Assembly: GCA_964187785.1 (NCBI GenBank)
Contig: OZ076409.1
Coordinates: 68,264,001-68,328,000 of the forward strand
Direction of reading: 5' to 3'
Length of the DNA stretch: 64,000 nucleotides
Origin: Amphiscolops sp. MND2022
Taxonomy: Eukaryota
Of this stretch, positions 10,084 to 64,000 are shown one piece after another (the first letter of the stretch is position 1; each line of letters begins with the position of its first letter). The position numbers and the translations under genes are program-made. Under the pieces are notes generated by a model. The model saw only the letters and a program-made list of their open reading frames with translations. It was not told where the DNA came from and searched no databases.

Positions 10084-10086
10084 TCT

Positions 10087-37772: not shown

Positions 37773-38999
37773 CCAAGGGAACTCTGTACCATGTGCACCC
37801 AACGAACTTTATCAGTACTGTTATTTTTTAACTTTTCGAATTTTTGTTAAAAAACCTACAGTTAAGATAATTGTTTTGGTGTTTTGACACGGAGAATTCA
37901 GGCACAGAATCTTATGAGAATGTTGAAATGTCTTTCCCGAAGCAATTTGAGTCAAATAATTCCGAACACAACCAGGAAATTAGTTTTAATATTTTAGTGC
38001 TGAAAAAATGAAACATTGCTTGACTACATTCTCTGCAGTCAATTATTCAGTCATTTATATAACTAGTACCCAGCTCTCGAAATGAAAAATTGCGTAGTCA
38101 GCAACCGTTTAAAATCACGGTCACTATCAATCATAAACCATTAAAACATGTCGCTGAGCAATGATCCGCGCTGTCCATGCAAAAAAATGTAGGGCCAATT
38201 TCAAACCATATATCAGCTTTAACGCAAGACATATTCATCGACCAACCGAACAAGGAACGAAAAGTAAACAACTCATGTCATGGGTAATCGAACGAAAATT
38301 AATTCACGTTACGACAAGGACATTACACAACGAACCAAGTACTGGAAAGTTGGTAAAAAGAATACTTGAACTATGTAAAAGCAGATTTATGTCGGAAAAA
38401 CAATACAAAACTAAAAATACCAACCAAAACCACTCGAAAACGGAATCCCATAACAAACAAGGAAATGCCTAGTACACGTCGAGAGAAATCACAATCAATG
38501 ACCGCTGAACAGATACTTGTAGCGAAACTTTGATCCATTGTAGAAGAAAAAGACCTGGAAGAGAAGGTGAAGAAGCGGAACAAAAAGTCATGGAGAAGAC
38601 GACACATACAAAAGCCAACCCAAAATTCTGAGAGACAAAACCAAGATTCGAAACCGCAACGATCAACTGTGTGAACAAAAACAATAACCATAGCCAATGA
38701 TGAACACCTTGGTTGGTGATATGCAACAACTTCAAAAAAGGGACACTTCAGAAAACTCTAATAGCGTGTGGTTTACCAACAACATTTGAATATACATCAT
38801 CGAATGTATCAGAACAATATTTCATAAGATTTTTGAAAGCACAATTCAGGAACGCTGTTATTCAACCTTTGAAATGTCCTTGAACGAGAACACTTTTGTT
38901 AAACATACTTTTTGTACAAATCCAATTACGATCGTGAAAAGATAACTTATCAACTTGGGACAACCTTACCAAAACAAAATGAGTAGATTCTGGTGGGCT

Positions 39000-41730: not shown

Positions 41731-42129
41731 CAATCAATACTTGCCTTGCCAGCATGATGGAAATATAATCTACTAAATATCTGTAATGTAAATAATATGT
41801 CTTATGTACTTAGATATGGGCAATATGATGTCATATAATAAGAGCCATGGTTGTGAGCAACCCTACGTTACTTGTACTTAATCCCCATTTCTCCCATGAG
41901 TTTGAGTTATATACATTTACTTAATACTGAGCGCTCTAGTTCCGGTGTCCGCATAAATGATCTTGCCAAAAATGGCCTTGAATGTGCTATATTTCATAAA
42001 TATTGGTTTGTCACGACAAGGGAGAGAAGTTTTCCGGCCAGACTGGACCAAGAGATATTGGAAGTAATGAGATGTATAGCTTCTACTAGCTCCCCGCCTC
42101 AGGACTTGTAGTCGTGACAACACTTTCAT

Positions 42130-42560
42130 AAAGTTCATCGTTAGTCCATCAGCGGATTCAACGATGAACCCAATTTGTTTTGAATGAAGTTCATCGCAAT
42201 TTCATCTCCGAAATTGCGGGTGAACAACGATTGGGACTTTAAACTGATTTTCATCACTTATCCATCAGCGGATTTTATGAAAATTGCTGTTTTATCTAAT
42301 GAGTTCATCCTAAACTCATCTCTGATTTTACTTTGCGCTAGATCTAGCAGTTTATCGAATGAATCCATCCTAAACTCATCGTCAATCTAGTTTGTGCTGG
42401 AAATTGGTAATTTATGGAGGAAGTTCATCCCTTTACCATCGCCATTTAAAATAGTGTTGATTTTTGGGCGAGAAAGACTACATTTCATCGCGTATCCGCC
42501 CTCAATTTCAGAATATCGATTTTATTGCTAGAATCAACTGGAAAACATCGTTTTCCTATC
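42130..42560. repeat. ~8 degenerate ~60-bp units each with CATC-N7-CATC, in the D 5' LTR
   Basis: ttcatcgttagtccatc, ttcatcgcaatttcatc, ttcatcacttatccatc, ttcatcctaaactcatc, tccatcctaaactcatc, ttcatccctttaccatc and two more degenerate units. Confidence 0.75.
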
Positions 42561-43225
42561 TCGCAATGCATTTTACCCTAATTTGAATTGAAATCAGTGT
42601 GCTATTGAATACTTTGAATTCATTTTCGTTGCTAGAGAGACCATTGTGGCATGTGCAGGTAATTATGACACTGTAAAGTGATGATTAACCACCATTTACA
42701 CATATGTAGATTGATCATGATGCGTGGCCACCCTGCGGCAGTTCACAACACCGGTCACGTGACTTACCAATTAGCACCAACCGGCAGTAGCCAATGAGAA
42801 GAGGCTGCTAAGAGATTTAGCGCCTTACCAGCCTGAAAAGACACGTGAACTGCTGTAGTTTAAGCCGCCATTAGAGATTACTGAGACCGAATTACGATAA
42901 GTTACCGTATAGTTTGATATTTCACGCCAGAAGTTTACTTGAAAAGTACATCCTTAATTCATCTCTGAAACCATAACACGACTACCTGAGTAATTTCGTT
43001 GAAAAATCTACATTACGATGAGAACCGGATGAACTTTCCTACCTACCTTTGCTAAATTCCTTCCAATCACTTGATACCTGTTTATTTGTACAACTGATCT
43101 CTAATTCATCTCAGTTCAAGATTAGTGAATTCGAGATCGCATAATCAGATATGAAACAGCAAAATACATCCAAATAACATCTCAGAAAATCCAGTCTTCA
43201 CTCACAAGTCTTTTCATTTATCTAC

Positions 43226-44740
43226 ATGAATCAGGACCAGGAAACTGTACTCAGAAGCGGTAGAGTCATTGATTCCTCATCAGAAATAGAATCTCCTGCA
43301 GATCCAAACATGGCCCAGGCAAACTCGAATGATTCTGACACCAACGACAGTTCAGATATCTCTTCCCAGTTATCTGAAATAAAAGAGAGTTATGAACGCC
43401 GAATTAACGAGTTGCATCAAGAGTTTAGTCAACTGAAGGACTTAATGATGGCGATTGTAAGCAAGAACAGTAGCGAATCTCAGCCATCTAGCTCGAAAGG
43501 TCCTTCAAAACCGGCCCAACAGCATGGGTTCGACATGGTGACAGGAGTTACAGAAACCCGCTCTACCCGCCCGACATCAAGCTTCACAAACTTCAGACGA
43601 TACCAAGATTATGACTCAGACGAAGAAGGCGAATCAACTCCCAGAAGCAACGAAGAACGGCTGCTAAACGCCATCGAGACGATCCCACAACGCATAAAGA
43701 GCACTACAACAAATACAAAACTACTGCCGACACACGTACCGAATTTCAGAGGACAAAAAGACAAATTCGTCGAATTTGAACACCTTCTCCTCAATCACCT
43801 CAGCCCGTTAGCCAATAAAATAACTGAGGAGAACAAGCTTCATATCTTTCAAAGCCTTTTGAGAGACGAAGCAATCGAGTATTGGCAATCGATCCAAATA
43901 ACGCCACTGACAACGCTGAAAGATGTGCTCGATCTGTTCAGAAAAGAATTCGCGAAAGAGGATCTTAAAGAAGTGGCTCGCTACAAGTGGGATCAAGCCC
44001 GTTACGATCCCACAACAGAGACTTTCAGCGACTTCCTCAAAACTTGAAAAAGACTGCGAAACAAGCCTTTGGGGATGAAGCGGATAAAATCATCAAGATG
44101 TTCTTGTTCGGCAAACTCCCAGTCGAAATACAACAAGAACTTACGATGGCCAACAAGGAGGAGAGCTCACCAGAAGAAATCAAGACATACTTGATGAGAA
44201 AGTACCAATACCAACAGTATGCAGCGCCGCCCACGACAATTCAACCATTCAACGCAGTCACCTCCTCTATTCCGACGAACAATGAAACAACCAAACCAAC
44301 AACAACGACGACAACACAACCAACTGAACGAAAACGATTCGAGGGACAATGCTTCTACTGCGGAAAGACAGGTCACCGCAAAACGGAATGTCGCGCCCGA
44401 CAACGTGACGAAGCAAATGGCATCAAGAAGGAAGATGCAATTCCGATGAAGAAAGCAACCGACCCAGACAAACCGAAGTACAATCCCAAGCTGGTTTGTC
44501 AGATTTGTGGATACACTGGCCACTCCGCAAGAGACTGCAGACGACGCATTCCCAAAGAAAGCAGCTCTGCATATGGCAAGATCCCTTATGAGACTTAGTC
44601 CCACAAATTCACAAGACGACAATAAAGCTAGAAGACAGGACTTAAAACGACAACAAAGACCAATGAACCCGATGCAAGCAGTTGCTGACGAAGAGGAACA
44701 GATAGGCTACTCTGATGAAGACATCAATCAGGGTTTTTGA
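43226..44740 (+). pseudogene. gag: gag of Gypsy D (two apparent frameshifts, ~44040 and ~44595)
   Basis: Homologous to C gag (FEHLL, FQSLLRD, YKWDQARYDPTTE). CCHC knuckles CFYCGKTGHRKTEC and CQICGYTGHSARDC. Confidence 0.88.
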
Positions 44741-45197
44741 TTCAACCACGATTTCCGCACGCTAGAAATACAACGCGCGACACACGACTTTCGACTCAAC
44801 CGACTACACGCAACCGTCCAATGAAGAAATTGCAGCCTTCACTGGACAAACGACCAAAAGCTGACGATGTCTATCAGCGAAGACTTTCCAACGATGAAAA
44901 AGCGATGGGAAATGCACGTCAACACAACGGCAGCCGGTTTTCCCCACTCGCTGAAATCAACGATGAACATGAGATGAACTGGCAACACAACACCATGAGG
45001 CAGGTGGATGATGCCAAAGAGATGGCTACCAACCATTTTCACCACGACTCGACTTCCCACACAACAAACAACAAACGGCTTAGTATTAAAAAACATGCAA
45101 CGCAAAATAGTATTAACGATTCAAAAGCTAAAAAACGTGCAACTGAAACAGAAATTCACGTTCTCAGTCCCACCTTACACTTAAATAAAAAGACAAA

Positions 45198-48100
45198 ATG
45201 CTTTATGTCCCTCTTCAGTTTGACAAATATGAAAAACACGCTCTTTTAGACACAGACGCAATTCAAAGCGCAATGTCTGAAGCAGAATTGCGAAAAATAA
45301 CCACGGCTCATCCAGAAGCCATCCTTCAAGAATTACCCCCACCGAACTTCAAAATCCAAATAGCGAATGGAAACTTAGTCCCAGTACGCAAACAAGTCTT
45401 ACTTAGATTTTATGTTGCCGGAAAAGTCATTGAAGAAACGTTCCTGATCCTTCCAACAATGGGAACAATTTTAATTGGAATGTCTTTTTTTGAAAAGTAC
45501 TCAGTTAATTTAGACATCAAGAACCATCTTGTCCACTTCCCCAAGCACATGATGTCCATGCAAGTTAGACAGCAAAAGAACAACAAATTTAAGACTGGTT
45601 TAATCAATTTGTGTTCCAGTAATAGAACAGTGATCCCTCCTCTACATCAAGTGATGATACAGGTCCACAGTGACGCGGACATCTCACTTACAACTGGTAC
45701 AGTTGAGGGTTCACCTGCCTTCATGCGAAAGACGTGTTTGCTTGTTTCCCCAGCTTTGGCTGACCTCGATGAAGGAAAGACGACAATACAGGTCACCAAT
45801 CCGAACAACCACACGTTCACACTTGATGCCAACACCACTCTGGCACACTTTCGCATACCGACACCACATCAGGCGGCCAACATCACGCCCATGCCAGTGG
45901 AACACTTGAACTTGATCACCAAGTACCCAGACGAGGCGGAAGCAGTGATCAACCAATTGTTCGTGAACCCTGACATGAAGTCAACAAAGTGGTACCCAAC
46001 TCCAGAGACGTGCAGTGACCCAAACAAACTCAATGCAATTGAGCGACGAATCTGTGATGAAATTCTGGCACTGCGAGAACTCGAGAAGCTTGACCCGTCC
46101 CAATCCGATGAACAACGGATGAACTTCCTGAAGAACTTCAACTGGGACGAATCACTTCTTACTCCGTCTCAACAGTTACAGGTAGAGGAGTTGCTGGTAA
46201 AGTACAACTCCATTTTTGCTAGACATCGTTTTGATATTAGCATGAACACTGATTTTAAAGTTAAGTTAACCCCACAACACCAAGAACCAGTGTATTCACA
46301 AAGTCTCCCGACTCCGACAAATTTGAAGGACGATTTGCTCGTGGAGTTAGCTCTAATGCAAGAGTACGGGATAATAACTACATTTCCTCATAGTAAATAC
46401 TCGTCTCCGATATTTGCTCAACGTAAACCTAATGGTAAATTGAGAATTTTAGTTGACTTGAGAAGAATAAACCACCTGATCAAAAACGACTACGGAGAGC
46501 ACAATCATCCCGTAACTACAATTGCAGACGCTGCCCAACACATGGCCGGGAAAAAGTACTTTTGCAAACTTGATTGTTCCCAGGCCTACCATTGCATCCC
46601 AATGGCCGACGAACAGTCAGTCCAACTGTTATCGTTTAAGTTTGGTTCTAGAACTTTTGCATTCTTACGTCTAGCACAAGGTCTTAATCGTTCTTTATCA
46701 GCATTCTCAAGTGTAGTCCGTGAGTATTTGGACCCCTTGGTCAAAGCGGATCGATGTGCTCAATATGTTGATGACATTGGAATTGCAGCACATACTCCTG
46801 AAGAACTGATTAATAACCTTGAACTTGTTTTCCAGCAATTGAACAAAGCCGGTCTTAAACTTAGCATGACTAAATGCGAATTTGGACAGAAGCAAATTGA
46901 GTATTTGGGCAAAACCATTTCTAGCACCGGTATTGCTCCCATTGAAAAACGCGTAACAGACTACTTGAGCAAGTTAAAACCCCCCAACTCAGTGAAATCG
47001 TTGCAACGTTACCTTGGTTTTGTAAACTTTTACAGATCATATATTCCCCGTCTAGCTGATAAAACTTGTTGTTTACAGGAATTGATCAAGAAAGACGTCC
47101 CTTTCAAGCTGAGCCAACAACATAAAGACGCTATTTTTGAAATTAACGAAAGTCTATTAAAAGCAACAAAAGTGTCTTTGAAACTGCCATTACCTGATAA
47201 ACAATTGGTAATCATGTGCGACGCCAGCGAACACGCTGCCGGCTATGTTTTGTTAATTGAGGATTATGCTGACCCGTCAGCCAAACAAACATACGCCCCC
47301 GTTGCCTTTGACTCTAAGAAATTTCAGGGAGGCCAGATGTCTCTAACAATGTATGCCAAGGAGTTTTTAGCGATGCATTTTGCATTTGATGAAATTGGCC
47401 ACATTTTGTGGGGTGCGAAAAAACCCATCATTGTTATGACCGACAACAAAGCCTTAACCAGATTTTTTCAGGCGAAGCACATCCCGCTCTCACTGTGGAA
47501 TTTTTGTGATCAAACGCTTCAGTTCAATTTTCTATTAGCACATGTACCAGGAGTTGAAAATCCCGCAGCGGATTACCTATCTCGCCTTGAGATTAGACCT
47601 GAAGATCGTGTCGATTTAAAATTGACTGATACTATTCCCATTCACAGAATCGAGATCGACATCGCTTCCAGAACACCGAAACAGGAGGAAGACGAGCCTG
47701 ACTACTTTCCCATAAGTGAACCACTCAGATGCAAACGCCAGAAGGATGTCAAAGAGATGAACTTGGCACTTGGCATTGATGTGGCTCATGACGATGGGAA
47801 AAGGATGAAGTTCACCAACTGTGAGAGAACAGCGGCCTCATATGAATTCGCGACCGACAATCATCTGACGTACCGCCTCACAGATGTGGACGAGCCAATA
47901 CAGCTCACGCAATTCATCAATAAAGTATCATTATCAAACCCGGTAATGAGTCAGGTTAGCCCCGCTGAGGGGATCGATCTAATTCAGATTCAAGAAACTA
48001 ACTGGGTCATTCAAAAAATGATTAGATTTTTGGAAGGTTCTGAAATTTTGCAACACCCAGTTAGTATGCAAGATCAATTTTTTCAAAAGTTGCACAAAAA

Positions 48101-49595
48101 TCGCAAACGCTTGCAAGTAGTGAACGGTGTCTTGTACAGGCAGTTTTATGATCACACGGGACTGGAGTCTCACAAACAGTTAGTCGTTCCTGAAGACTGT
48201 ATCTTGAAAATCATCAGGACTCTCCACAACAGCCCGGTACAAGGACACCCTGGTTTGAAGAAAATGTTGTACGAACTACGTAAAAGATACTACTCTCCAA
48301 ACTTAGCTTGTAAAGTTCAAAAGGTTCTAGACGGTTGTGAAAACTGCATGAAATCTAAAAGCGTAAAAGAACCGCAACTACGTCCACCGTTACAGAAAAT
48401 CTACGACCCGTGCGATGGACCAGAAGACCTGCTTGAAATAGATATTATTGGTCCACTCCCGGCGTCGAACGGTTTTACGCACATTCTGACGGCTGTTGAT
48501 GTTTTTTCACGCTACCTGTTCGCCGTTCCGCTGAAGAGACCTGACACGCACTCCGTAGTCAGAGGTTTACTGTCAATATTCACGAAACACGCTTATGTGC
48601 CAAAGCACATTCTGACGGACAAGGGCACGGCGTTTACGGCTGAACTTCTCTCTGAAATCGCGAAAACGGCTGATATTCACATCTCCCACGCCACGATAAA
48701 GCACGCACAGACAATAGGCATGGTCGAGAGAACGCACGCGAAACTGAAAAAGACCCTTAAAATTAGTGTAAACGCAGACAGACCACAATGGGACCGCTAT
48801 GTCGACATAGCAATCATGGCCCATAACACAACTTACCACGACTCACTGAAATGTTCACCAACTGAATATTTCCATGGCAGAATACCGTACAACCCACTAG
48901 ACCTGCAATTCCGAAACGCAAACAAGCCGGCTGAAACAAAGTGCAAGGACGTGAATGAAATTCTAGACAAAATGAACATCATCTTCAGAGACAATCTAGA
49001 CAACATCATCTCCGCCTATCACAAGTACAAAATGTACTATGATAGAAAAGCACGAGCGCAGCCACTGAAGGTGAATGAATTCGTGTTCCTACTCGACCCT
49101 AAGTACGACTCTCAGCAAAGCAAGGAAGAGTTTAAAACTTTCCATTGGAAAGGACCGTACAAGGTGATTAAAGTGCTATCTGATAGCAACTACATCATCC
49201 GCAAAGTAGGCACACATCAGACTCAGTGCGTACACAGAATGCGACTGAGGTTGTTCAAACCGGAATTTCCGATTGATGACATCAACGTGTCCAAACATCT
49301 TTACCCAGACACTGAAAGGGTTGAAGACACGGACATTTTCGACTCGAATATTCCGACGACCGACGAAGTAGATCAGAACGAGAATGACAATCTAGATCAA
49401 GACTTAGTCGAAGAAGAGCCTTCAGAAGAAATAGTTCCACAAGTACAAGGACGACACAGTCCACAAGCAATTCCACCAGCAATAACCACGAGAATAGACT
49501 ATCAGCAAGTAGAAACTGACCACAATGACTTTATACCACCTACAGTTAGATTTGGAACGCAAGAGGAAATTATTCTACCGCCCCCCCCGCGATGA
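45198..49595 (+). CDS. pol: pol of Gypsy D (PR-RT-RH-IN); N-terminal extension 44737-45249 and tail to 49830 lie in other frames
   Basis: 1465-aa ORF. Protease LLDTDAI (DTG mutated), RT QYVDDIG, RNase H CDASEH/ENPAADYLSR, integrase HHCC plus EIDIIG/TDKGT/GMVER, and WKGPY. Confidence 0.95.
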   Translation: MLYVPLQFDKYEKHALLDTDAIQSAMSEAELRKITTAHPEAILQELPPPNFKIQIANGNLVPVRKQVLLRFYVAGKVIEETFLILPTMGTILIGMSFFEKYSVNLDIKNHLVHFPKHMMSMQVRQQKNNKFKTGLINLCSSNRTVIPPLHQVMIQVHSDADISLTTGTVEGSPAFMRKTCLLVSPALADLDEGKTTIQVTNPNNHTFTLDANTTLAHFRIPTPHQAANITPMPVEHLNLITKYPDEAEAVINQLFVNPDMKSTKWYPTPETCSDPNKLNAIERRICDEILALRELEKLDPSQSDEQRMNFLKNFNWDESLLTPSQQLQVEELLVKYNSIFARHRFDISMNTDFKVKLTPQHQEPVYSQSLPTPTNLKDDLLVELALMQEYGIITTFPHSKYSSPIFAQRKPNGKLRILVDLRRINHLIKNDYGEHNHPVTTIADAAQHMAGKKYFCKLDCSQAYHCIPMADEQSVQLLSFKFGSRTFAFLRLAQGLNRSLSAFSSVVREYLDPLVKADRCAQYVDDIGIAAHTPEELINNLELVFQQLNKAGLKLSMTKCEFGQKQIEYLGKTISSTGIAPIEKRVTDYLSKLKPPNSVKSLQRYLGFVNFYRSYIPRLADKTCCLQELIKKDVPFKLSQQHKDAIFEINESLLKATKVSLKLPLPDKQLVIMCDASEHAAGYVLLIEDYADPSAKQTYAPVAFDSKKFQGGQMSLTMYAKEFLAMHFAFDEIGHILWGAKKPIIVMTDNKALTRFFQAKHIPLSLWNFCDQTLQFNFLLAHVPGVENPAADYLSRLEIRPEDRVDLKLTDTIPIHRIEIDIASRTPKQEEDEPDYFPISEPLRCKRQKDVKEMNLALGIDVAHDDGKRMKFTNCERTAASYEFATDNHLTYRLTDVDEPIQLTQFINKVSLSNPVMSQVSPAEGIDLIQIQETNWVIQKMIRFLEGSEILQHPVSMQDQFFQKLHKNRKRLQVVNGVLYRQFYDHTGLESHKQLVVPEDCILKIIRTLHNSPVQGHPGLKKMLYELRKRYYSPNLACKVQKVLDGCENCMKSKSVKEPQLRPPLQKIYDPCDGPEDLLEIDIIGPLPASNGFTHILTAVDVFSRYLFAVPLKRPDTHSVVRGLLSIFTKHAYVPKHILTDKGTAFTAELLSEIAKTADIHISHATIKHAQTIGMVERTHAKLKKTLKISVNADRPQWDRYVDIAIMAHNTTYHDSLKCSPTEYFHGRIPYNPLDLQFRNANKPAETKCKDVNEILDKMNIIFRDNLDNIISAYHKYKMYYDRKARAQPLKVNEFVFLLDPKYDSQQSKEEFKTFHWKGPYKVIKVLSDSNYIIRKVGTHQTQCVHRMRLRLFKPEFPIDDINVSKHLYPDTERVEDTDIFDSNIPTTDEVDQNENDNLDQDLVEEEPSEEIVPQVQGRHSPQAIPPAITTRIDYQQVETDHNDFIPPTVRFGTQEEIILPPPPR

Positions 49596-49859
49596 AAGCA
49601 GGATAAGATTACCTCTGAGAGACGAACAACACGAAAATCAATCACAACAGATAAACACGCAAACTGAAGATGAGGAAAGGATGAGTTCTAGACCGTCTAG
49701 AAACAATCAGAGTAGGTACAGGTTACGCGAGAACCCTACACCGAAAACATATCCTGATTTCCTCATTCATGAGATTACTTCAGCTAGAAACGCACTGAGA
49801 AAGACCAACAAAGTAAACGTAACGATTTAGACAAGAACAACGACATTTCAAAACACACG

Positions 49860-50545
49860 ATGTGTTAAAGATGAACAACTCACAAAAACGAACAATTTAC
49901 ATGCAATTTCAAGTTAAAATGAACATGAAGATGTAAAATGGATGAACAGTCACTAAAAATCACATGAAAAACGCATAAAAACAAAACGCGATGTAAAACG
50001 GATGAATATCAACTAAAATTTCATATAAAACAGACGACAAAAATCACGAGATGAAAAAAGGATGAATTCGCATGAAAATTTACATCATACAAACAAGAGA
50101 TGAAAAAGCGATGAATTTAACCAAAACTAGCTTACAAACATGCAATAATTAATAGCGATGTATTCGAGATGGAAAACACCATCAGAATGCGAACAAAGCA
50201 ACAGTCATCCTATCATAATACTCTAGCTCGGCTAGAGGAGGAAATAGCGATGAATTCGACCAACAAACTCACTGAATACATGAACACAACCGATAAGATG
50301 TATTTGTGATGGAAACTACCATCAACTCAATAATGAATTCATCGTCAGACCAAGCACAATACTCTAGCTCGGCTAGAGGATGGCTTAGCGATGAACTTAG
50401 TCTAAATCAACTTAACAAATGAAAATTAATTTGAAAGATGAATTTGCGATGGGAAACACAATCAACATGGCAATACATTCATCGTTTACTACCACAATAC
50501 TCTCGCTCGGCTAGAGGATGAGAAAACGATGAATTTAATCCATCG
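49860..50545. repeat. GATG-N7-GATG ~60-bp units followed by three ~140-bp units containing a hairpin
   Basis: Motif pairs at ~49930, 49990, 50050 and 50099. CTCTAGC-TCG-GCTAGAG at 50221, 50362 and (variant) 50500. Confidence 0.75.
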
Positions 50546-50917
50546 AAGACCCGAAATCCATCAAAACGGACAACCCGATACATGTAAATACAAACATACA
50601 AGAAAACTCGATGACGTAACGCCGGTAAACAGACAATTCCAAATTACATGTACCTAAATAAATAGCACATCAATGACACACACATGTATCATCCTATAAC
50701 GAAGGATATAAAATATGCAATTCACATACAATCCAAACACACCTAGACAACAATTGACGAACCAAACAATCGAAAATACATGAAGCCTACTAATTTACAT
50801 ACAAATTATAAGAATTGACGAAACAACCACATGACGAATAAAGGAGTGAGCCCCCCCGGTAAACATCAGTTCATAACAAGTAAAATACCCCTATCGAAAA
50901 GCCAAAAACATTCCTTC

Positions 50918-51080
50918 GTGCTGGCTGGCATTTCTCTGAAAAGAGTGCTGGTTAGTTGAGGCGGAGAGCTCACAACCATATTCGGATGAAACTTGCTGCG
51001 TTGGTTATCCAGCGGCTAGTGGATTCTCAGTTAGTTTTGTAGGGGCTTTGTGACGACAAAGCCCTGTCCAAATTGACGAA
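50918..51080 (+). ncRNA. Candidate structured cis-RNA element downstream of pol in Gypsy D
   Basis: Homologue of 29591-29737. Hairpins include CTCT-GAAA-AGAG and GGGCTTTGT-GACG-ACAAAGCCC. G-U pairs favour the genomic-RNA strand. Confidence 0.6.
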
Positions 51081-52137
51081 CAAAATCAAAAAATAATCAA
51101 CATGCAAATAATGGGGAGACCCATTAATACATTGCGAAGAACACCAAGAATTTCAAAACGACATATAAAGTTAAAAGTATGATGAAAATCATACCGACGC
51201 GCTATAAAATGAATAAAACACTTGCACAACATACGAAAATCACATTTCCGAAAACGTAATAATCACATAGCCACGAAAAAGCGCACAAAAACAAAATTTC
51301 AAACGTAAGATGAAAAGAAGATGAACTAGACTCAACAACGTGTAAAAGCTTTAGAATTCAAACTCGCTATGAAAAGACGATGAATTATGCTAACAAAAAA
51401 CATGTAACAACATGCAATGTCTCTTACATAACGAACGATGTAAAAAAAGATGAGAAAACAGTTTTCGCGACGTCGCTCGGTCGACTGAGGAAAACACGAT
51501 AAAAATGAGATGAAAAATCAATAGCGGAACGCTGATATACTACCTGCACGTACATGAGATGTAACAACGATGAACACCGTGAGAAAAGCCATCTGAGACT
51601 TCCGACAACGAAAAAGCGATGTAAAAACGATGACAAATGAACCTTGAAAACATTGACGGACACGACCTATTAGCCAAAAATGTTAATTCGCAAACCTCTC
51701 CTATCTTTTGTCGCTATCACTATCAACTCACGAGAAAAACAACTATCGGGCACCAAATATTTAATACTGTAAATAGACATCGCTACCGACCTTTCCGACG
51801 TAGCGGGGATTTCCCGCTTCATCTTTCTTTTCACTCGAGAGTCATACTCAAAGTTGGTTACCCATTAAAATGCTAACAATGCTGCCAAATAATACAAATG
51901 ATGCAAATAATACAAATGATGCAAGGTTTTAAAACTAAAGTTTACGAAAAACTAATTGCCGATCTCAGGACTCATTGCACGCTCTCCTTCTCGATCATAT
52001 CCGAGCTGCTCATGAATATGCTGTCGATAATCCTCATTCGCTACAACACCAATGTCGTCCCAAAGTAGCTCCTCAGTAAATCCCGACAAATCCACAATGC
52101 GTCCAATTGCCTCAGTCACTTCATCAAGTAGTGGACC

Positions 52138-53068
52138 TGTTGGCGCCAGTCATCAGAAGGCAAAGAAACTCGATTCAGAACATGCTGGTTGAGAAACAAG
52201 ACTTAAACTCCAAAAAACTTGAAGAAAGTTGATGAAAATTTGAAGAAAAGTCGATCATCAATTTTCTGCAACCCCCCCCAAATGGGTTTTCTCCAAGACT
52301 ATTAATCATAGAGCCATGAAACTTGGCACACATACGCAAGTACCTAACACAAACACACCGGCCAAGTTTCAAGGTCATCCACCCATTATAACCACCTTTA
52401 CCCCTCACATGTGTGATATTCAAGGTCAATGAGACAAAAATGTAAAATTTTGTTATTTACCCATATGACCCACATTAGAATGTAACTCTGTTGCAATTGA
52501 TGATATGTACATAGTGTAAACATGCTTTAGAGCCCACCTAACCAACATGCCAAAACCACCACATAGTTTGTTTACTTAGCCAATAACTTTAATAATTCAC
52601 TTAAATGTCATTTTATTTATACCACATATTTCAACTGATATTTGTTTTATATTTACTGTAGAATTGTAAACCAGATTTATACCATAATTAGATAGAGATT
52701 TTTTCCACTGAATAGCTATAGTCAAGTTGGGTCTCAGGACCGCGAGACTAATTAATCTACTTCTCAATCTTCACAACTTTTCGCTAGAGTCAGAGCGACT
52801 AAGTAGCTACTCTCATAGTTGGAGAGCCGGAGCGCGTGAAGATACAGTGAGGGAAGTGTGTGCAGGATCACATCGGATCCAATTCAGTGCAAAAAGGAAT
52901 AGCAGGAGATTCCACGGGTCTTATCGGACCCACCAGCCAAAAGATACAGTCCTTTAAAACAAGAAAATCAGGAATTGTTTAGTAACGGTCCACAGTACTA
53001 AGCAACGGATCAGGGCGGCGTAAAGCTTGTCAAGCCTCAGCGCAGGATAAGGGCAAGCAGCCGTTACA
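52138..53068 (+). repeat. 5' LTR of BEL element (931 bp)
   Basis: TG...CA; direct repeat of 57754-58670. Confidence 0.93.
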
Positions 53069-53192
53069 TTTGGTCCGCCGACCCGGACAACTCGTTGGTG
53101 GACGACCCGGACTAGAAGAAGACGACTCGTTGGTGTACAACTGAGAAGATTGCCCAGGAAGAACAAGTGTCTGATTCTTGGAGTCTCTGACT

Positions 53193-53413
53193 TTGTGTCT
53201 CTGGGAGATTGGCCTACTGTGTCTCTGGGAGATTGGGCTACTGTGTCTCTGGGAGATTGGGCTACTGTGTCTCTGGGAGATTGGGCTATTGTGTCTCTGG
53301 GAGATTGGGCTATTGTGTCTCTGGGAGATTGAGCTACTGTGTGTCTGGGAGATTGGGCTATTGTGTCTCTTGGATATTGGGCTATCGTGTCTCTGGGAGA
53401 TTGGGCTATCGTG
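53193..53413. repeat. Minisatellite, 9 x 24 bp (CTGTGTCTCTGGGAGATTGGGCTA), in the BEL 5' UTR
   Basis: Head-to-tail units without spacers; an 8-aa repeat appears in the ORF track. Confidence 0.95.
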
Positions 53414-53448
53414 ACTTTGGGAACTGAGTTCAATCGACAAGAGAAGAG

Positions 53449-56400
53449 ATGGCAGAACCAAAACGGTTCGATATCAACAAAATCGAAAACTTCCTGAAGA
53501 ACTCTGCTGACAAAGCCCAAACTTTGAGTTATTGGAATGCAGCTGTCGAGCACGGCAAAACGATCAAAGAAATTGATGAGAACCTAGCTAGCAATGTTGA
53601 CGACAAGCAGATAGCAGATTTACTGCTAAGACGAACAGATGCCATAAACAGGAGAGATCGGCTCATTATGGCAGTCGAAAATGCAATCAAAGTCAAGTAC
53701 CAACCGCTGATTCCCGAAATGTTCTCAGCAGTGAACAGAGCAATGCAGAGCCGATGGGTTGAGTTACAGCAGCAAAGCTCTAGCGTTGGAAGGGTAAAAA
53801 CACTGATGTCAGCCTTGCAAGATGGAAATCAGATACTAAATTACTTGGATCTTGACGAAAACAAACGTGCTATTGATAGACTAATGGTTAGCAACGAAAA
53901 GTTGCGAGAAGATTCAATCGCAAATGGCAATGACGCCAACGAAGAAGATTATGTTGCAGCATGTCAAGAATTGCTCCAGAAAAGGTCTGATATCAAAACA
54001 AAAATTGAAACTCTGCTGAAGTCAGGAAACGAGGGAGCCATTTTGCGAAGTCTTGAAGACGCTGAACAAAGACTGGCAGACGCTCGTGTAAACTCAGCAG
54101 CAGACAAATCCAGTAAAAATGGTACCTCACCACAAAAGGAACCACAATCAACCAATGAGCAAAAAGGACACGATGATGGTCATAACGCGAATGACAGACA
54201 AGAGCGAAGAAATAGAGCTAGATCACTGCAAATTGAAGCATTGAGCATGCATTCGCGAAGTGACAAAACCAAAAGCAACAAGACGTCTGTGATTTCAAAA
54301 ACATCAAGCGCAAGAAGAGTTCTACACTTGGAGCTAAAAGCTCTGAAAGAGCAAGAAGAACTGCAATCCCGCCTGGAGAAACTGGGAAGAGAAACAAAAC
54401 AAAAGGAAATGGAAATAGCAGACTTGCAAGGTGAGGTGGCCCGCAAGGTCAGAATTGCAGAAAAGGAAATAGAACTGGCGAAATTTTCAAGTAGTTGTGG
54501 CACCAGCTTGCGAAGTATTCCACCAGTCGAGTCACCAGACGACAATTTGACGAAAGTCTCAGATTGGATGGACAAGACAGAAGAAGCTGAAAACCTGGCA
54601 TCGACGACTAACGTGCCATCTGTATACCAGCAAACGTCCGTCTCAGCACCAGTAAGAACAGTACAATCGATGCATGAAGGACAATGCTCTGCGCTAGTGA
54701 GGGACTTGAATCCTCCAGTGAAACCGACTATATCCACCGAAGCCGCTAGTCGAGGTATTGGAAAGCACAGAACAAAGACTGTCATAGATGCTGTCAGTCA
54801 AAGAGCAACAGCACAACCAGAAGTGAAATTCGCCCCATCGAAGCCGTCGATGACTCTCAGTGCAGACCCGAATCGGTTACCGCCTACGTTTGGAGGCACC
54901 CAAAGTGGTGCATTTCAAGTACCACAGCTTGCGAACACACAAAAACAGTATTTGCCCGGTCAAGAACCAAACTTTGCCTCAAATGCAAAAGATGACTACT
55001 ACATCAGATCTAGCTTGCCAAAATTGAAGTTAGCAGAATTCTCAGGTGACCCATTGGAGTGGCCAGAGTGGTCACAACTATTCCAAGCAACCGTCCATGC
55101 AGCGAACATAGACGACAGTGTAAAAATGAACCACCTGAAAACAATGGTCACGGGCAAAGCGAAAGAGGCTATTGCTGGTCTGGGGTACACTGCTGAGATG
55201 TACAATGTGGCGTGGAACGTTCTAGTTCGAAATTTTGGAAAACCTCAAATGGTTGTGAACGCCCAGTTGAAGCGAATCTATTCCTTCCCTCCGATGAAAC
55301 CTTATGATGGAACCGCATTGATCAAGTTTGCAAGAATAGTGTCGAGTTGCGTGAATGTTCTGACACAATTCAATTACGTGGGAGACCTAAACTCAGAAGG
55401 AGTTCTGGGCAGTGCCACAAGGAAGTTAACACTGGACATGAAAACGAAGTGGCTAACTTATGTCAAGCAAATGAACCTGTATCAACCTGGACTCGCTGTG
55501 TTCAGTGAATGGCTCAATGATATAGCAGATGTTCAAGATGAATTGCTATTTTAATCGAATCCAAAAGCTGATTGCGCGAAGACGAGCTACAAGGAAAAGG
55601 CCGAAGGCTCTACGTTTGCAACATCAGCCACAAACACAGCAAATGACAATTCGAAAACTCAGCGAGAGTGTGTGTTGAAAGATGGTCAACATCCGATATG
55701 GAAATGTGAGAAATTCAAGAAGATGAACGTGGAAGAAAGAGGACAAAGGGCGAAAGAACTGAAGCTGTGCTTCAAATGCTTGTCAGACGCACATCAGATG
55801 AGAAATTGCTCTGGTAGACTCTGCGACGTCAATGGTTGCGGAAAACCTCATCACCGATTGCTACACCGACCTTACAAGAACGAGGAACAGATGCAAAATG
55901 TTGAAAATGTCGATGAGGTCTCAAACCTGTCCTCAATGAGAAGCAGTGGAGTGCTTCCAGTCATTCCTGTAACGATAGGGAGTGGGAGCAAAACTCTGAA
56001 AACGTTCGCTTTGTGTGACTCTGGAGCAAGCCTGTCCTTCGTGGACGAGAGCCTGATGAAAACGCTAAATCTGACTGGACAACCAGTGAATTTGAATGTT
56101 GCAGGGATTCATGGTGCGTCAGATATTAGTAGCAAACGACTAAGGGTCAGGATTGGCGATCAACAAGGAAAAGTCAAAGAAGATATCATGACCTATAGTC
56201 ATCCCGACGTAAATGCAGGAAATCGAACGTACAACCTCAAGAAATTGAAGGAAGAATATCCACACCTGTCAGTGCTGAAAGATTCTACCAACAACCTGAA
56301 AGATGTAAAAGTCATCTTGGGACAAGATTGTTACCACTTGCATAGAGCCATTGGGTTTAGAAAATTTGGAAAGTCAAAACCTTGGGCCGTATTGACAAAA

Positions 56401-57808
56401 TTGGGGTGGATGCTTAGTGGACCCTTGTCTCAACAAGAAACTGCGAAGTTCGCCACTGAAAGTTTGGTTTTTGCAGATGTGGATCCAATGGTGGATCAGA
56501 TGAAAACTCGGTCGAGCATGGAAGTGTATACTTCCCACTGCAGCGTATCCGAAGTGTCCAAGGAAAATACGGAGAACTCACCAGACATATTCGTTGTAGA
56601 AAGAAACTGGAAGGAAGTCAGTACTAAACCCCTCCTTTTGGAGATCAAGCAAGTCTGGCGAGACGAAATGTACCTAGCTGTGAGTGACCATATAATTGTC
56701 GAACAAGACGAAAACATGGGTTTCTCAATTGTAGAAGAAAAGACGAACATGAAAGTTTTGCAATTAAATCAAACCTCCGAACCCTGGAAGACTTTACTGT
56801 GATGCTTGATTTGGTGAAACAGAATATGGATGTCGCCTCTGTGCGACAGCATGTGGAAGAAACGCAATCAACTCAAAAGCAAGCAATAAAGCTCGCTGTC
56901 AACACTCTAACACATGAAGAGGGAAGAAAATGTTCTCAAATGGACATAAAAATTGAATTCGTAAAAGAGTGTCATGTCGAACTTCAGGAATATCCAAGAG
57001 GAAAAACGATATTTCGAAGACACTCCAATAATTTGTTGAAACGCAACCAACCGTCTGAAGAGAACACAAGTGATCGAACAAAAGCCGTAAAGATGTCACT
57101 TTGGAGAAAACATGATGTTGAGCTGAAAGAAAAACCACTGGACAAAATTATTCCAAACGACAGAGAAAATTGTAACAACTGGTTAGGTAATGGAAACTCA
57201 GGAATGGATGCAGTGGCACAAGCTAACCCTATTGTGTACACTCAACTGAGCAGTGGTCACGGCAAGCAATTCGAGAAACGAGCTTGGAAATTTGAACATA
57301 GCTCATACCTATTAGATGGAATGGTCGAAAGTGTTCAATTGACAACTGGCATCCTATATGCAAAGATTGTGATTGATGAATTCGAGATGAAATATCGCTG
57401 ATGGAAACGCAATTAGTTTCTTCAAAAGCACAAACAACAACAAGTTTGGAAAATGGGCCTGTCATAGGGCCGGCTGTATCATGGGAAGAAATGATTATGC
57501 AACTAGAATTCTTTGGAAAATGGAATAAAGAAGTTAGACAACTTTGAGTCAATGATTTGGTTTGGATTGTAGATGACAATGTGGAAAGAGCTCGCTACAA
57601 GATGGCTAAAGTGATAGAAGTCTTTCATGGAAGCGATGGGCGAATGAGATCAGCGCTGGTGAAAACTGAAGATGGAAAACTCAAAAGACCAGTAGTGAAA
57701 CTGGCACCCATGTTCTACGAAAGTGTTTTTCGGGAGAAAAACAGGGCCGGCAAAGTTGGCGCCAGTCATCAGAAGGCAAAGAAACTCGATTCAGAACATG
57801 CTGGTTGA
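53449..57808 (+). pseudogene. BEL gag-protease ORF with eroded pol remnant
   Basis: BEL gag motif PKLKLAEFSGDPLEWPEW; stop at 55552; zinc knuckles (CFKCLSDAHQMRNC, CGKPHHRLLH); protease LCDSGAS...LGWMLSGP; integrase C-terminal tail VWIVDD...GSDGRMRSALVK..KRPVVKL. No YVDD-type RT motif. Confidence 0.88.
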
Positions 57809-58670
57809 GAAACAAGACTTAAACTCCAAAAAACTTAGATGAAAATTTGAAGAAAAGTCGATCATCAATTTTCTGCAAACCCCCCCCCAAATGGGTTTTC
57901 TCCAAGACTATTATTCATAGAGCCATGAAACTTGGCACACATACGCAAGTACCTAACACAAACACACCGGCCAAGTTTCAAGGTCATCCACCCTTTATAA
58001 CCCCCTTTACCCCTCACATGTGTGATATTCAAGGTCATTGAGACAAAAATGTAAACTTTGTTATTTACCCATATGACCCACATTAGAATGTAACTCTGTT
58101 GATGATATTTACATAGTGTAAACATGCTTTGGAGCCCAGGTAACCAACATTCCAAAACCACCACATAGTTTGTTTACTTAGCCAATAACTTTAATAATTC
58201 ACTTAAAGGTCATTTTATTTATACCACATATTTCAACTGATATTTGTTTTATATTTACTGTAGAATTGTAAACCAGATTTATACCATAATTAGATAGAGA
58301 TTTTCTCCACTGAATAGCTATAGTCAAGTTGGGTCTCAGGACCGCGAGACTAATTAATCTACTTCTCAATCTTCACAACTTTTCGCTAGAGTCAGAGCGA
58401 CTAAGTAGCTACTCTCATAGTTGGAGAGCCGGAGCCCGTGAAGATACAGTGAGGGAAGTGTGTGCAGGATCACATCGGATCCAATTCAGTGCAAAAAGGA
58501 ATCGCAGGAGATTCCACGGGTCCCATCGGACCCACCAGCCAAAAGATACAGTCCTTTAAAACAAGAAAATCAGGAATTGTTTAGTAACGGTCCACAGTAC
58601 TAAGCAACGGATCAGGGCGGCGTAAAGCTTGTCAAGCCTCAGCGCAGGATAAGGGCAAGCAGCCGTTACA
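57754..58670 (+). repeat. 3' LTR of BEL element (917 bp, first T changed to A)
   Basis: Direct repeat of 52138-53068, followed by TSD GGACC. Confidence 0.93.
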
Positions 58671-61600
58671 GGACCCCCAACACTCTCGTACACACGTAGT
58701 TGATGCGCTTTCAAATAACCTAGGACCGTTGCGCACACACTGCTGGTCACATCGCCGGACAAGCGCCCCACTTCAACACACTTAGTCTCCAACGGAAACT
58801 GCGGACTCTCACATAAACATAATAGGAACCGCAGAAATCGCACTGATGCTTCACTGTCACAGGCTCGTAGGAGGTCGACTTCAGAACCAGCTGTAGATAC
58901 CACACTAGGACCCACTAGAGCACGATAGTTCGACACAAATTTTGTCACACTCCGATCCATACGTCTGCGTTCTGCTGAGGTAACTCGGTTCAGTTCTAAC
59001 TCAGTAAAGTGTCTAGCTTCATTCAAGATGAGATCTTCCTCTGCAATGAACAGAACAGCTGGACAACAAATACCCAAATAGAAGGTCACTTCCTCTTTCA
59101 AACCTTTCACTGTTAGTACTTCCTCCACAACTGTCAACAAGAATTTCTGCACCAGAACCAGATCTTCTTCATATTGAGTAGAATTTGCGTAGTATTCAGA
59201 GTGCACAGAGAGTACTCCTCGCAACAATTCCATTTTGGCTTCACTCAACTCCAAATCAGACACGGTGATGCCCAAACAGGCACGCACATTCGTCACTGGG
59301 GGGAGGTTAGCTTCGTCGACAACATGAACCAACAGAGCTCGTAAAAAGCATGCACTCTCGTATGCCCAATGGCACCCACAAACAGGACTATCGCTGAAGC
59401 TCCATTGATATGAAGTCACTACTAAAACATCACCAATCACGCATAATTGACCATTTGTCCTAAAATCAACAATCCAGCCCCCCCCCCACCAAGTTTAGAA
59501 AAAATCACCCAAATAATCCTTACGAATGAGAACCAAACTAAACAAACTTACGAGCACGGAACACAAGATTTAAAGCATGCAGTCGCACAGGCACACTTGG
59601 ATCGCCGCACAAAACATAATCCAGTGGCTCCGCCGCACCCGCGGCATCAGGCGTCCTGAGCAGTCCACACACGAATAGCCAGTTTTCGTGTAGTTCGGCA
59701 AGAACATCAGGCACATCCCACAACGAAACTTCGCCTTCCAAGACCGACTACAAAACAAACCACAAGATGAAACAACCTTCTACTACACGCAACCCTCTCC
59801 CACAGGAACCATATGAATCGAGTACAATCATTACCATGCATGACCAAAAACGTAAATGGAAAATGCCTATTATACATACCCGCAACAGTTTTGGGCAAGA
59901 CAGCAACATCTCATCCTTCATGAAGGGTTTAAGACGAGACTGCAGGTGATTGAGGATGACATGCACATCAGTACCCCCCAAAACCCGGACACTGGCAGTG
60001 ATCACCACTCTGTTGATGTCCGCCAGTCGCAAAGGTACCAGACTGATTGTTCCAAGTCAAGCACTGGAAGTCAGAGCCCAATTGAGTCGTGGGAACAATT
60101 CGCAATTTAACCCCAGAGGACAGATTTCACCAACAGCACCACAGAGCAGATTGACAATCCATGTAACTAGTCGCCCCTCCCAGTCCTGTGCATAACTGAA
60201 CGAGAAAACGATGTAGTTGGTAATTCCTTCAGCAGTACATATAATCACACGCCCAACGATTCTGTCCGCTACTATCCCAATGGAGAAACTGCTGAACGCG
60301 GACTCAAACCACAGGGTAATCAACCGACGCATTACATAGGGCCACAAACCCAGAATGAACACTCTCTAAACGAACCACATAATATTGTACATACAAAACG
60401 AGTACTCACAACCCGAAGATCATACTTAGACTACAACAGTCAAAATACAAAATTCATTTTATCCTAATCACGCACCTAACAAACACATCATAAAATATAG
60501 CAAATATGATTACCAAAACATCTTCGATTCGGCACTTTAGTCCAAACAGAGTCACATGCTGCGCATCGGTAGCCACCATCAATTCCCATAGCCCACACAC
60601 GCTCGCTAGATCGCAATCCCGATACAAAGCGTCAATAGCTAGGCAGAGGAACAATCGCACAGTACGTTCTAGGCCGTCCGTCTCGTCACGCTCCAGATCG
60701 TCCCAGACAGACCTTCCATCCAGTTCTAACTGAAAAACTTCCGCCGGAGTAGCATCGGGACACCTTTCCACAACAGGCACGGTCACGCCTTCTAAGAGAG
60801 CAGCCTGATTAACACTGGCAGTCGTCGACATCAAATTGCCATCGCGATCGCGCAACGCAAGCCCTCGTCTGAGTCGTACGAGACAGTCGAGACGATGATG
60901 CTGTACTCCACGACAATGTTCCATGAAAGTCGTGATCCCACGACTTGCGACTTTCACATCTCGCTTGCACAGCACACACCGCACGTACGACGCCCGAGAT
61001 TGATGATTCTTCGCATAGCCTAATGCAAGGCCGCAATAGGCATGGTTAAACCAACTGAGAGCAATCCGCTTCTGCCCTGTTTTCAAAACATCATACAAAT
61101 AGAACCATTACTTAACCCCCTACCACCGAAAATCAAAAATTATAACCCAAAACAAGCTCTTACACATCCTTCAAAAACTGAAAAAAGAAAAAACAACCGC
61201 AAACTTCAAAAGGCTCACCCGGAGTGATGAAAAAATGATGTAAAATAATATTTTCATCGGGAAATATAAGCGAAAAACGACGAAAAAACGATAGGATGAA
61301 AAAAAAAGATGTATAAAGCGACTTTTGAACCAAAATTGAGGCATTTCAGAGCAAAAACGATTCAAGGATGAAAAGGAGATGTAAACTGAAAAGAAATGAC
61401 GAAGAGATAAACTAAAACCCAAACGAGAAAATTCCAAGGATGTAAAAGAGATGGAATATAGTAAAAATGGCTAAAATGTGAAAAGGAAGAAAACACCACG
61501 CTTGAAAACTTTGAAAGATGAGAAAATGATGAAAAGTGAAAACTTGAACAAACCATCTGACGAAAGTTCTAAAACGATGGGAAATAGATGGAAGGACTGA

Positions 61601-64000
61601 ATATCTGGACTGCTAATGAAAGTGAAAAGAAAAATGCGAAAGATGAATGGACGAAAATTGTAAAGCAGATAATTCACAGGTCTTAAAGCTGTTTAGGTAA
61701 CCTGGCAAACGAGAGGCGATGGGCTCATCATCAGAGTCATTGAGGCTGGCCCCTATTGGCGAAGTCTCCTCTGGACCAGGTTCTGGCGCAGGACCAGCGT
61801 CGCCCGACTCGGAACGAGCAGCAAGAGAACCGTCAACAGTGAAGTCATCAGGAGGGTCTACAGATGACTCGAGGCTGGTTAGAGAAGCTGGTCCTGAAGC
61901 AACTATATCAATGTCCGGCACAGCATCTTCGGGCGCAGAGGCAACAGGCGTGGGCGCAGCTGGGGGATCATACACTGTACCGACGTCGCAGTAACTTACG
62001 ACCGCCTGCACAGTTTTGTCAGCATTGGTGATCCCAGTGTCAGTTGCCACCTCCACGTACTCCACTTCGTCACGAGTAGAAGTACCCCGACAGAGAGTGA
62101 CCCGAACAGTTGGAGGACTGGCAATAGTAAAGGATCGTCTCAAAACTGGCGATAACATAGACACTGGAGCCCGCATAACGGGAGAGCTTGTACCAGTCGG
62201 ACACAGATCTTGGAAGAACGAGGAAAGATCAAGCTGGGGAGGTCCTCCCTGAGTGCTGACATCAACACTGTCACCACCGAAATCACCGGTCCCAATTCCA
62301 ACGGAGTGTGTGATGGGACGTGGTCTTGGTGCATGAATCGGCGTGGGACCTGTAAATAGAAAACCAGTAATCAAACGACGAAGATTGGAGAAGAAAGTGC
62401 GCGTAAGCCGCGCGAAGAAGGAAGATCGAAGAGAATTCATCCCAAATCCATCTTCAAAAAATGGAATTTGCGATGAATCAACCAAGGACTGCGAGTACAT
62501 ACAGCACATCTAAAAGTCATCTCGAGAATGAATTACATGGCTAATCGACCGCAAAAGGCACTACATGAAGATGAGATGGAAACATCGGAATTACATCGGA
62601 GTGCCCGGACGACGCCCTACTAGAAGAGAAAATTAGAAAAGGAGTCAACTCACTGAATTGCTGTATACTGTCTTGCAGCATGTCCCGCAAGTAACGGTCG
62701 TACCACCCGAGGTAATACTTCCGAGGGAGGCATACCAAGGAAAGTGGTCTAAAACACCAAATGGAAGGAGTCAGCGTCTGGTTGGATTAGGAAGGAGGAA
62801 CGAGAGGATTGTGGACTGAATTGAAAAATCTGGAAGGACAGTACTTACACTGCGGCAGATACGGGACATTAATTGGCTGACCAATCTGTTGATCAGGCTC
62901 AATCTGGGGTTCAGCAATAGCTGGCTGGACTGCTGGAGCTTCTTGCGGCGGCACAGTTTGAAGGGTTGTTAACTCAGATACGATGCCAACAGAATGGACT
63001 GAGTCAGCTGAAGCAAGATGTGTTTTCAGTACCTAGTTGTCCCTAGTCCGTTTGTGAAAGAAAAGGAAAATAGTGCACTTACTTTCTGTGGCCTCGGTCT
63101 CTGGTAACGAGTAGACTGAATGGATGTCTGACATCTTGAAGAAAATTGCAATCAACAATCTGAAAAGGAAGGGAAGAGAGTGAAGGAAGGAACGAAATCG
63201 AAGAACTCAGGACAGGAATTTGATCAGTAATTAAATGGCCTGATCAACCATGATTACGAGGATACAAATTCACGAGAAAAATATCAAAGAGCGCGAATGC
63301 AGCTTGAATGCCAGGGTAAATCAAATACTTGAATTTAAACGATGGAAAATCGATGAAAAACTCTCCGATTTCAAAGACTGACTACACTCTTTCTTCCCAG
63401 TTACAACCAGTTCAAAAACTTCTCAGAAAAATGGATCGTCCACTCTTAGGACTTGACTACAAAAGCTTCAAGTATTTGATTTGTTGACAGCTGCCAGTCT
63501 CAGATCGATGTCGATGAAGTTGAGCGGAAAACGCGCAAAGGAAATCGCGGCGATTTTCAAACCGACTAAACGAAAGACGGTTAACGGATCGGATGAGAAT
63601 GTTATTGACAATCGGTTGGATTTCCTCCAGTCAGAAAATTCAGTCCTCAGCCAATCAAGACAAGCAGTGGTTGCTATGGCGACGATTCATCTTTTCCTCA
63701 TCGCTGAGAAGTCAGGCAGCGGAAGCGACAACGGCGGTTGCTATGACAACAATTCATCTCTTTCCTATCGCGGGAATTTGACAACAGAGCAGCGGCGCCA
63801 GTCTATGCTAAGTCAACATCGATGCCTCGCTGAGTAAACAATTTATCGTCCATTCATCTCGAGTAGTTTCTAGCAGACAATTGGCGGCGCCACTTTACTG
63901 CCATATTGTCAATGAAGCTAACAGTAGTATTTACTCAGCGTAGGCGGTCCGAAGAAAAATTGAGATTTTCACCGAATTTATCAGCAGACCGATCTCCCAT

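Follow-up and report, generated by a model that had tools for sequence, protein, structure and literature searches.

The DNA examined here, referred to as the window, is a 64,000-nucleotide stretch of contig OZ076409.1 from Amphiscolops sp. MND2022 (positions 68,264,001 to 68,328,000, forward strand). It contains two long terminal repeat (LTR) retrotransposons of the Ty3/Gypsy type, C and D, each with two LTRs and the pol order reverse transcriptase (RT), RNase H, integrase. Both elements carry an additional gene, which we call the cargo, on the strand opposite gag and pol. The cargo is almost certainly a single spliced gene that is homologous in C and D. Other copies of the family are given by locus number (L031, L033 and so on).

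Structure of the antisense cargo gene

The D cargo consists of eight predicted exons (63134-51952, minus strand) and is interrupted by a BEL element. The features of element D are listed along the chromosome up to the end of the cargo, and then in the direction of cargo transcription.

41747..43535, plus strand: 5′ LTR of Gypsy element D, a 97.6-99% match to L032:312-2457
43178..49595, plus strand: gag and pol open reading frames (ORFs) encoding RT, RNase H and integrase (Pfam RVT_1, RT_RNaseH, rve)
49600..51951: spacer between pol and cargo, with 13 CATC-N7-CATC dyads, many about 60 bp apart; the boundary of cassette exchange falls here in relatives
63083..63134, minus strand: predicted exon U1, with an ATG at 63134
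62849..63007, minus strand: predicted exon U2, acidic and rich in Pro and Gln
62654..62748, minus strand: predicted exon U3, containing a conserved short motif of aromatic residues
61702..62349, minus strand: predicted exon U4, an acidic low-complexity region rich in Pro, Ser and Thr
61077..61701, minus strand: long T-rich intron holding five CATC-N7-CATC dyads
60514..61076, minus strand: finger exon, a C-x2-C-x16-H-x5-H BED-type zinc finger followed by a helical region
60366..60513, minus strand: intron a, phase 0, GT..AG
59880..60365, minus strand: exon 2, RNase H-like core, with an in-frame stop at 60059-60057 in the window copy
59748..59879, minus strand: intron b, phase 0, GT..AG
59552..59747, minus strand: exon 3, helical, with an invariant Trp
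59422..59551, minus strand: intron c, phase 1, donor at 59551 and acceptor end at 59422
58671..59421, minus strand: last exon, portion ahead of the BEL insertion
52137..58670, plus strand: internally deleted BEL/Pao element inside the last exon (DUF1759, aspartyl protease)
51952..52136, minus strand: rest of the last exon through the stop codon, contiguous with the 58671 portion in L031 and L033

Element C has the opposite orientation.

22457..37773, minus strand: Gypsy element C, with LTRs at 22457-23719 and 36509-37773 that are 97% alike; gag-pol on the minus strand
25931..28948, plus strand: C cargo, with the finger exon at 25931-26493 and further exons at 26654-27146, 27308-27518 and 27703-28948

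The 3′ LTR of D lies just past the end of the window, at extended coordinates 64312-66457, and the gag N-terminus is repeated there. In both elements the gag frame starts within the LTR (43178-43535 in D, 36509-36902 in C), which duplicates the gag N-terminus at the 3′ end. About 357 bp of the D 3′ LTR (L032:845-1200) are missing from the 5′ LTR.

The initial annotation placed introns a, b and c at these positions and phases, and all of them are present in the sequence. The C introns at 26494-26653 and 27147-27307 are likewise both GT..AG. Intron c of C (donor 27519, acceptor end 27702) begins with GC rather than GT, a detail that had passed without remark. The end of the D gene had been set at 58671. 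This has to be revised, as the last exon resumes at 52136, beyond the BEL insertion, and stops at 51952. The BEL LTRs (about 52137-53069 and 57754-58670) are 96% alike and the element is flanked by a 5-bp duplication, GGACC. It has no RT, and a 24-bp tandem array lies just inside its 5′ end, at 53128-53439.

Upstream of the finger, the ATG and donor of exon U1 are kept in nine aligned D copies, with variation at third positions. Exon U3 is frameshifted in the window copy (95 nt, compared with 96 nt in L033), and exon U4 of L033 encodes 31 D/E, 11 K/R and 74 P/S/T among 215 residues. Both window copies of the cargo are broken, C by stops and frameshifts, but the exons are open in many other copies.

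Family profiles built from 15 D-type and 16 C-type copies matched each other with a probability of 99.8% and an E value of 3.1e-30 over 640 columns, at an identity of about 16%. For exons 1-3 of the window copies, the local alignment (82 of 344 residues identical) scored 166, and 500 shuffled controls gave a mean of 36 and a maximum of 60. When exons were aligned singly, none of 1000 shuffles reached the score of the finger exon or that of exon 2. Exon 3 alone was not significant (203 of 1000 shuffles in local alignment, 63 of 1000 in global). Low identity, also claimed initially, holds up: D and C share 15% of cargo residues, compared with 63% across RT, RNase H and integrase.

All three introns fall at the same column and in the same phase by both hhalign and MAFFT L-INS-i; plain pairwise alignment places junction a six residues off. 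The intron directly before the finger exon is phase 1 in both genes, though its position is not alignable. In a census of 78 loci, hand-picked from match lists rather than sampled at random, GT and AG were both present in 74 of 75 assessable copies for intron a, 65 of 68 for intron b and 61 of 66 for intron c (3, 10 and 12 loci, respectively, were not assessable). Intron lengths ranged from 90 to 250 nt, and no intron loss was found among the assessed copies. Open frames of 603 residues and several of 390 were considered as cases of intron loss and set aside as read-through, either checked or inferred (L031, L041). None of the 300 scored finger matches contained a longer frame.

Protein features and lineage-specific motifs

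Sequence searches, including Pfam, assign the cargo protein to no known family. Finger residues C33, C36, R45, G46, H53 and H59 are invariant in 18 copies. The BED finger of Hermes uses C51, C54, R63 and H71 (PMC10368747), and the cargo finger shares both its C-x2-C-x16-H spacing and an invariant Arg eight residues ahead of the His. The best PDB match to the finger was the BED domain of ZBED2 with an E value of only 0.92, and Pfam zf-BED did not match; the BED assignment rests on the residue pattern.

An AlphaFold model of the exon-2 family (predicted local distance difference test score, pLDDT, 81) is RNase H-like, and the top Foldseek match is the hAT transposase Hermes (E 4.3e-4). VIA aligns the model to Hermes residues 152-265, with other RNase H-like folds ranking equal or higher. 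The core can be traced up to the insertion domain, although this fold is common to other families too. As a lead, the clusters that Atlas gives for exons 1-2 are all hAT-derived. The last exon yielded an all-helical, low-confidence model with no fold or Pfam match when the PF05699 dimerisation domain and the insertion domain were sought. Profile-profile comparison with 49 hAT proteins was negative. In a small set of hAT elements from this genome (30 + 10 loci) there was no significant match to the cargo profiles (best E 0.006), and none of the loci examined was a donor carrying the cargo introns. Other hAT transposases are present in the genome (L082, L084, L085, L160), a number of them with long open frames, and their sequences are unrelated to the cargo.

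Taken together, we think it quite likely that the cargo derives from a hAT transposase. If it does, loss of catalysis is highly probable. Among 31 copies no acidic residue is invariant where strands 1 and 4 end, nor at the site presumed to hold the third member of the DDE triad, with the sites located on the predicted model and the third chosen by eye. The C1 lineage alone has Asp at the end of both strands. No terminal inverted repeats of at least 40 nt surround the C or D cargo; shorter repeats were not searched.

The elements also contain repeated short motifs that differ between lineages. Two clusters lie in the window.

42136..42441: six CATC-N7-CATC dyads clustered within the D LTR at intervals of 54-60 bp
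23007..23878: 23-bp palindromes with the core GACT-N9-AGTC, clustered inside the C LTR and next to it

There are 42 CATC-N7-CATC dyads in element D and one in the rest of the window; CATC pairs at other spacings from 3 to 13 occur zero to two times in D. All 18 D-type elements have 13-41 dyads, and 17 of 18 C-type elements have 0-3. D dyads cluster about 60 bp apart in the LTR, the spacer and the long intron, and occur in both orientations within one element. Their period of 11 bp corresponds to one turn of DNA, and the second D subclade additionally has dyads in facing orientation, at distances of 9, 20 and 31 bp. Pol contains 1-6 dyads per D element.

In element C two further 23-bp palindromes lie in the spacer, near 29994 and 30200, and those of the LTR recur at 37061-37644. 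C-type elements fall into two palindrome classes. Palindrome X (ACGACTG-N7-CAGTCGT) has 6-9 sites in eight of the nine elements whose finger helix carries [QH]N at positions -5/-4. Palindrome Y (GATGTNG-N9-CNACATC) has 6-16 sites in all nine elements with SS at those positions. Class and finger residues thus agree in 17 of 18 C-type elements, and in 10 of 11 elements outside the training set; sites of the opposite class number 0-2 per element, as they do in shuffles. Positions -5/-4 are equivalent to S66/N67 of Hermes, which read bases (PMC10368747). The finger class that goes with the CATC dyads is TT/ST. Two elements, L054 and L056, have pol of the X-type clade with SS fingers and Y sites.

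Other sequence features were recorded in the spacers. Three 140-bp repeats in the D spacer (50210-50535) each carry a CTCTAGC-N3-GCTAGAG palindrome beside a dyad, and their copy number differs among relatives. A palindrome that resembles a hairpin, with a loop of the GTCGTCAC type, is conserved at 51038-51062 and in the spacers of L031-L040, L113, L116 and L121. Its arms are not the same in D as in some C lineages but remain complementary; it is a possible RNA element. CATGTA and TGCATG words are enriched 5-8 fold in the spacers of most C and D elements, in both clades, and are unrelated to finger class.

We propose, with a probability of roughly 0.6, that the cargo is a Gypsy accessory gene derived from a catalysis-dead hAT transposase, encoding a sequence-specific transcription or chromatin regulator of the element's own LTR. 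Binding of the protein to the element's own motifs, a prediction from sequence, is somewhat better than an even bet. Several observations weigh against this proposal. The Y-site spacer of L054 arrived with the cargo side (it is 93% like L047), and since finger and sites are physically linked, common descent alone would also predict that they match. The motif classes number just three, and a single exchange is informative. Among 36 elements there are two exceptions, L110 and L116; these are possibly nested elements, and about 6 kb separate L110 from a C-type finger. Finally, there is no CpG depletion, and transitions at CpG (0.0315) barely exceed the comparison value of 0.0247, which argues against DNA demethylation of the type known from VANC, compared below.

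The linkage argument is also the basis of the best-surviving alternative, which we consider unlikely: a genuine hAT-derived gene whose protein has another task, such as tethering the integration complex to chromatin or aiding packaging, while recognition of the motifs falls to a host factor, to Gag or to integrase, or the motifs function at the RNA level. Linkage would account for the covariation of finger and motif, palindromes X and Y could form RNA hairpins, and the few dyads within pol fit this explanation as well. Direct repeats spaced at one helical turn and found in both orientations fit double-stranded DNA. In addition, the residues that vary with motif class correspond to the base-reading residues of Hermes (PMC10368747), and the finger exon is the most conserved part of the cargo. 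These points weigh against the alternative.

The remainder of the window contains a non-LTR RT fragment and two more degenerate Gypsy-like elements (1-1596, 6200-9900 and 17750-21000). None of these three regions contains a cargo profile match or a dyad. A 1484-bp tandem duplication with 99.5% identity occupies 9840-12804.

Family, inheritance and selection

The family numbers hundreds of copies. Each of the two finger queries gave at least 150 matches, all 150 of those scored, out of 2780 candidates for one query and 3436 for the other. A last-exon profile gave 220 representatives at 50% clustering. For two of these, a D-like and a C-like sequence, identity to the best match in this genome is just 28-33%, a figure from searches that score best candidates only. 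Judging from sequence, these two probably come from another host, which would place the C/D split before the divergence of the hosts. The cargo introns are older than that split.

We selected 51 loci by their cargo. In 43 of them the cargo is antisense to pol, between pol and the 3′ LTR, and six have no pol within 10 kb. Cargo without pol in the 10 kb retrieved was seen in L115, L116, L059, L110 and L042. L115, with an LTR/gag start, open exons and eight class X sites, could be non-autonomous and still retain the regulator. Two C-type copies are unusual: L057 (G000:C6:4695900-4705899) has the finger exon and exon 2 in three tandem copies without later exons, and L114 has an internal deletion, in frame, that stretches from exon 2 to the last exon.

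Pol and cargo were compared in 43 of the 51 loci; eight were dropped for too little pol or missing exons. Among these 43 elements having both parts, the type of the cargo always matches the clade of the pol, D with D and C with C. The initial annotation had interpreted the gene as an example of long vertical inheritance. This is true of the deep C/D split. Inside the clades the trees disagree, and the cargo has been swapped as a cassette between elements. The pol genes of L035 and L037 differ by a synonymous divergence (dS) of 0.05, but their cargos are 53% identical with saturated dS. L108 and L109 show the same pattern (pol dS 0.01, cargo 64% identical, dS saturated), and L121 and L122 the reverse (pol dS 1.49, cargo dS 0.09). 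Cargo dS exceeded 1 in 49 of 100 pairs with pol dS below 0.35, though these pairs are not independent. At a boundary within the cargo-pol spacer, DNA identity steps from 64-78% to 92-96%, and some pairs show a second change in identity upstream of the finger.

Rapid sequence evolution had also been proposed, and as a claim of fast adaptive change it is not supported in that form. The cargo is under purifying selection: the ratio of nonsynonymous to synonymous divergence (dN/dS) had a median of 0.16 and a maximum of 0.49 in the 40 of 903 pairs where dS was measurable. For comparison, the finger exon had a ratio of 0.05 and pol one of 0.077. Given these ratios and the saturated cargo dS beside near-identical pol, the low identity reflects old, reassorted alleles more than fast adaptive change. 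Pairwise dN/dS is still compatible with episodic or balancing selection arising from conflict.

Strictly vertical inheritance with fast, conflict-driven protein evolution, as first proposed, is improbable in our view. It is consistent with the deep congruence, with a cargo dN/dS about twice that of pol and with the coexistence of many old alleles, as would be seen under balancing selection. The near-identical pol genes beside saturated cargos, the sharp exchange boundaries and dN/dS values no higher than 0.49 all speak against it.

Proposed function and significance

How the regulator that we propose might have arisen can be outlined. There is about an even chance that an old animal Gypsy lineage captured a hAT transposase in antisense orientation with its introns, that this protein is now the element's own transcription factor, that fingers and operators co-diversified into at least three orthogonal classes, and that alleles move as a cassette within a class. 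Antisense introns escape the splicing of genomic RNA by the established logic of reverse transcription. The cargo introns would outlast reverse transcription in this way, lying on the strand opposite the genomic RNA and hidden from the spliceosome; we infer that they persist because the spliceosome never meets them there. A promoter belonging to the cargo, close to the 3′ LTR, would drive expression of the protein. On a hAT scaffold, a dimer or oligomer of the protein could bind paired motifs with two BED fingers, and the acidic low-complexity N-terminus might recruit host machinery that keeps the LTR active. Template switching in the spacer would reassort old cargo alleles among near-identical pol backbones.

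The direction of the effect is a more tentative matter. Activation as the net effect, rather than repression or another role, falls slightly short of even odds, and activation or anti-silencing would be somewhat likelier than self-repression. A self-repressor, a copy-number control or a decoy for host hAT-derived proteins, binding the same sites, is a touch less probable than the strictly vertical scenario. The cargo protein has a long acidic N-terminus, which is more typical of activators, and the elements have reached a very high copy number. The same site and finger data are compatible with repression, the sites occur throughout the element and beyond the promoter, and antisense transcription may itself silence (PMC7264820). 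Independent insertions of nested hAT DNA transposons into C and D, with no role for the retrotransposon, would explain the hAT-like fold and the six loci without pol, but are largely refuted by the identical position and orientation in 43 of 51 loci, the deep congruence with pol, the missing terminal inverted repeats (at least 40 nt) and unconserved catalytic residues, and the LTR/gag start still present upstream in pol-less L115, L116 and L059.

An element-encoded regulator of this kind would have partial counterparts elsewhere. Antisense ORFs of plant Ty3/Gypsy elements (Retand TRP28/PF04195, Grande gene23, RIRE2; PMC11963269, PMC7264820) likewise lie between pol and the 3′ LTR, are kept in most copies and are suspected DNA-binding regulators with family-specific repeats nearby. 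However, the cargo has no TRP28 (PF04195) match, and it has seven predicted introns, a word absent from the main text of PMC11963269. It is traceable to a hAT-like fold, whereas the origin of the plant ORFs is called unknown and a nested-transposon origin unsupported in those papers (PMC11963269, PMC7264820). Unlike those ORFs, the cargo has dispersed sites that match its finger residues.

VANC of VANDAL, a Mutator element (PMC5735166), is also an element-encoded accessory gene with introns, and non-coding DNA, introns included, has gathered its short motifs, which spread through the formation of repeats and differ between related families, like those of the cargo. But VANDAL is a DNA transposon, VANC has DUF1985/DUF287 domains (neither matched in the cargo), and VANC acts on DNA methylation (PMC5735166), of which there is little sign in this genome. 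TnpA of Spm and other transposase-derived regulators (bioRxiv 10.64898/2026.08.24.746577) share with the cargo the route from loss of catalysis to sequence-specific regulation. As described there, such regulators stay in their own DNA transposon or pass to the host; in the cargo a class I element took a class II gene, and neither "LTR" nor "retrotransposon" occurs as a whole word in the text of that preprint.

Hermes and the domesticated ZBED/FAM200 proteins (PMC10368747) resemble the cargo in BED finger spacing, recognition-helix position and RNase H core. Hermes binds paired short motifs (PMC10368747), as we suggest on sequence grounds for the cargo. The cargo differs from them in lacking a conserved DDE triad and terminal inverted repeats of 40 nt or more, in showing no similarity that sequence searches detect, in its long acidic N-terminal extension and in having a retrotransposon as its carrier. 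The ORF3s of bdelloid rotifer LTR elements (PMC5408684) are, like the cargo, non-env extra genes of animal LTR elements traced by remote homology. They are GDSL and DEDDy enzymes, and the words "transposase" and "intron" are absent from the main text describing them. Searches of an open-access paper library listed no report of such a system in an LTR element. The cargo resembles the plant antisense ORFs in position, VANC in its motifs and TnpA as a putative regulator made from a dead transposase, but by domain it is a member of none of these groups.

According to PMC7264820 and PMC11963269, it is not known where the antisense genes of LTR retrotransposons come from or what they do. The cargo family offers candidates on both counts, a DNA transposase as the source and motifs in the element's own LTR as the target, together with natural finger/site pairs that make the antisense-gene question directly testable in vitro. 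If our proposal is true, it would show a means by which a retroelement keeps a multi-intron gene and would provide a small natural recognition code for BED fingers. Transposase domestication would then reach beyond host genomes into another class of mobile element, in the form of a class I element that operates with a domesticated protein of class II.
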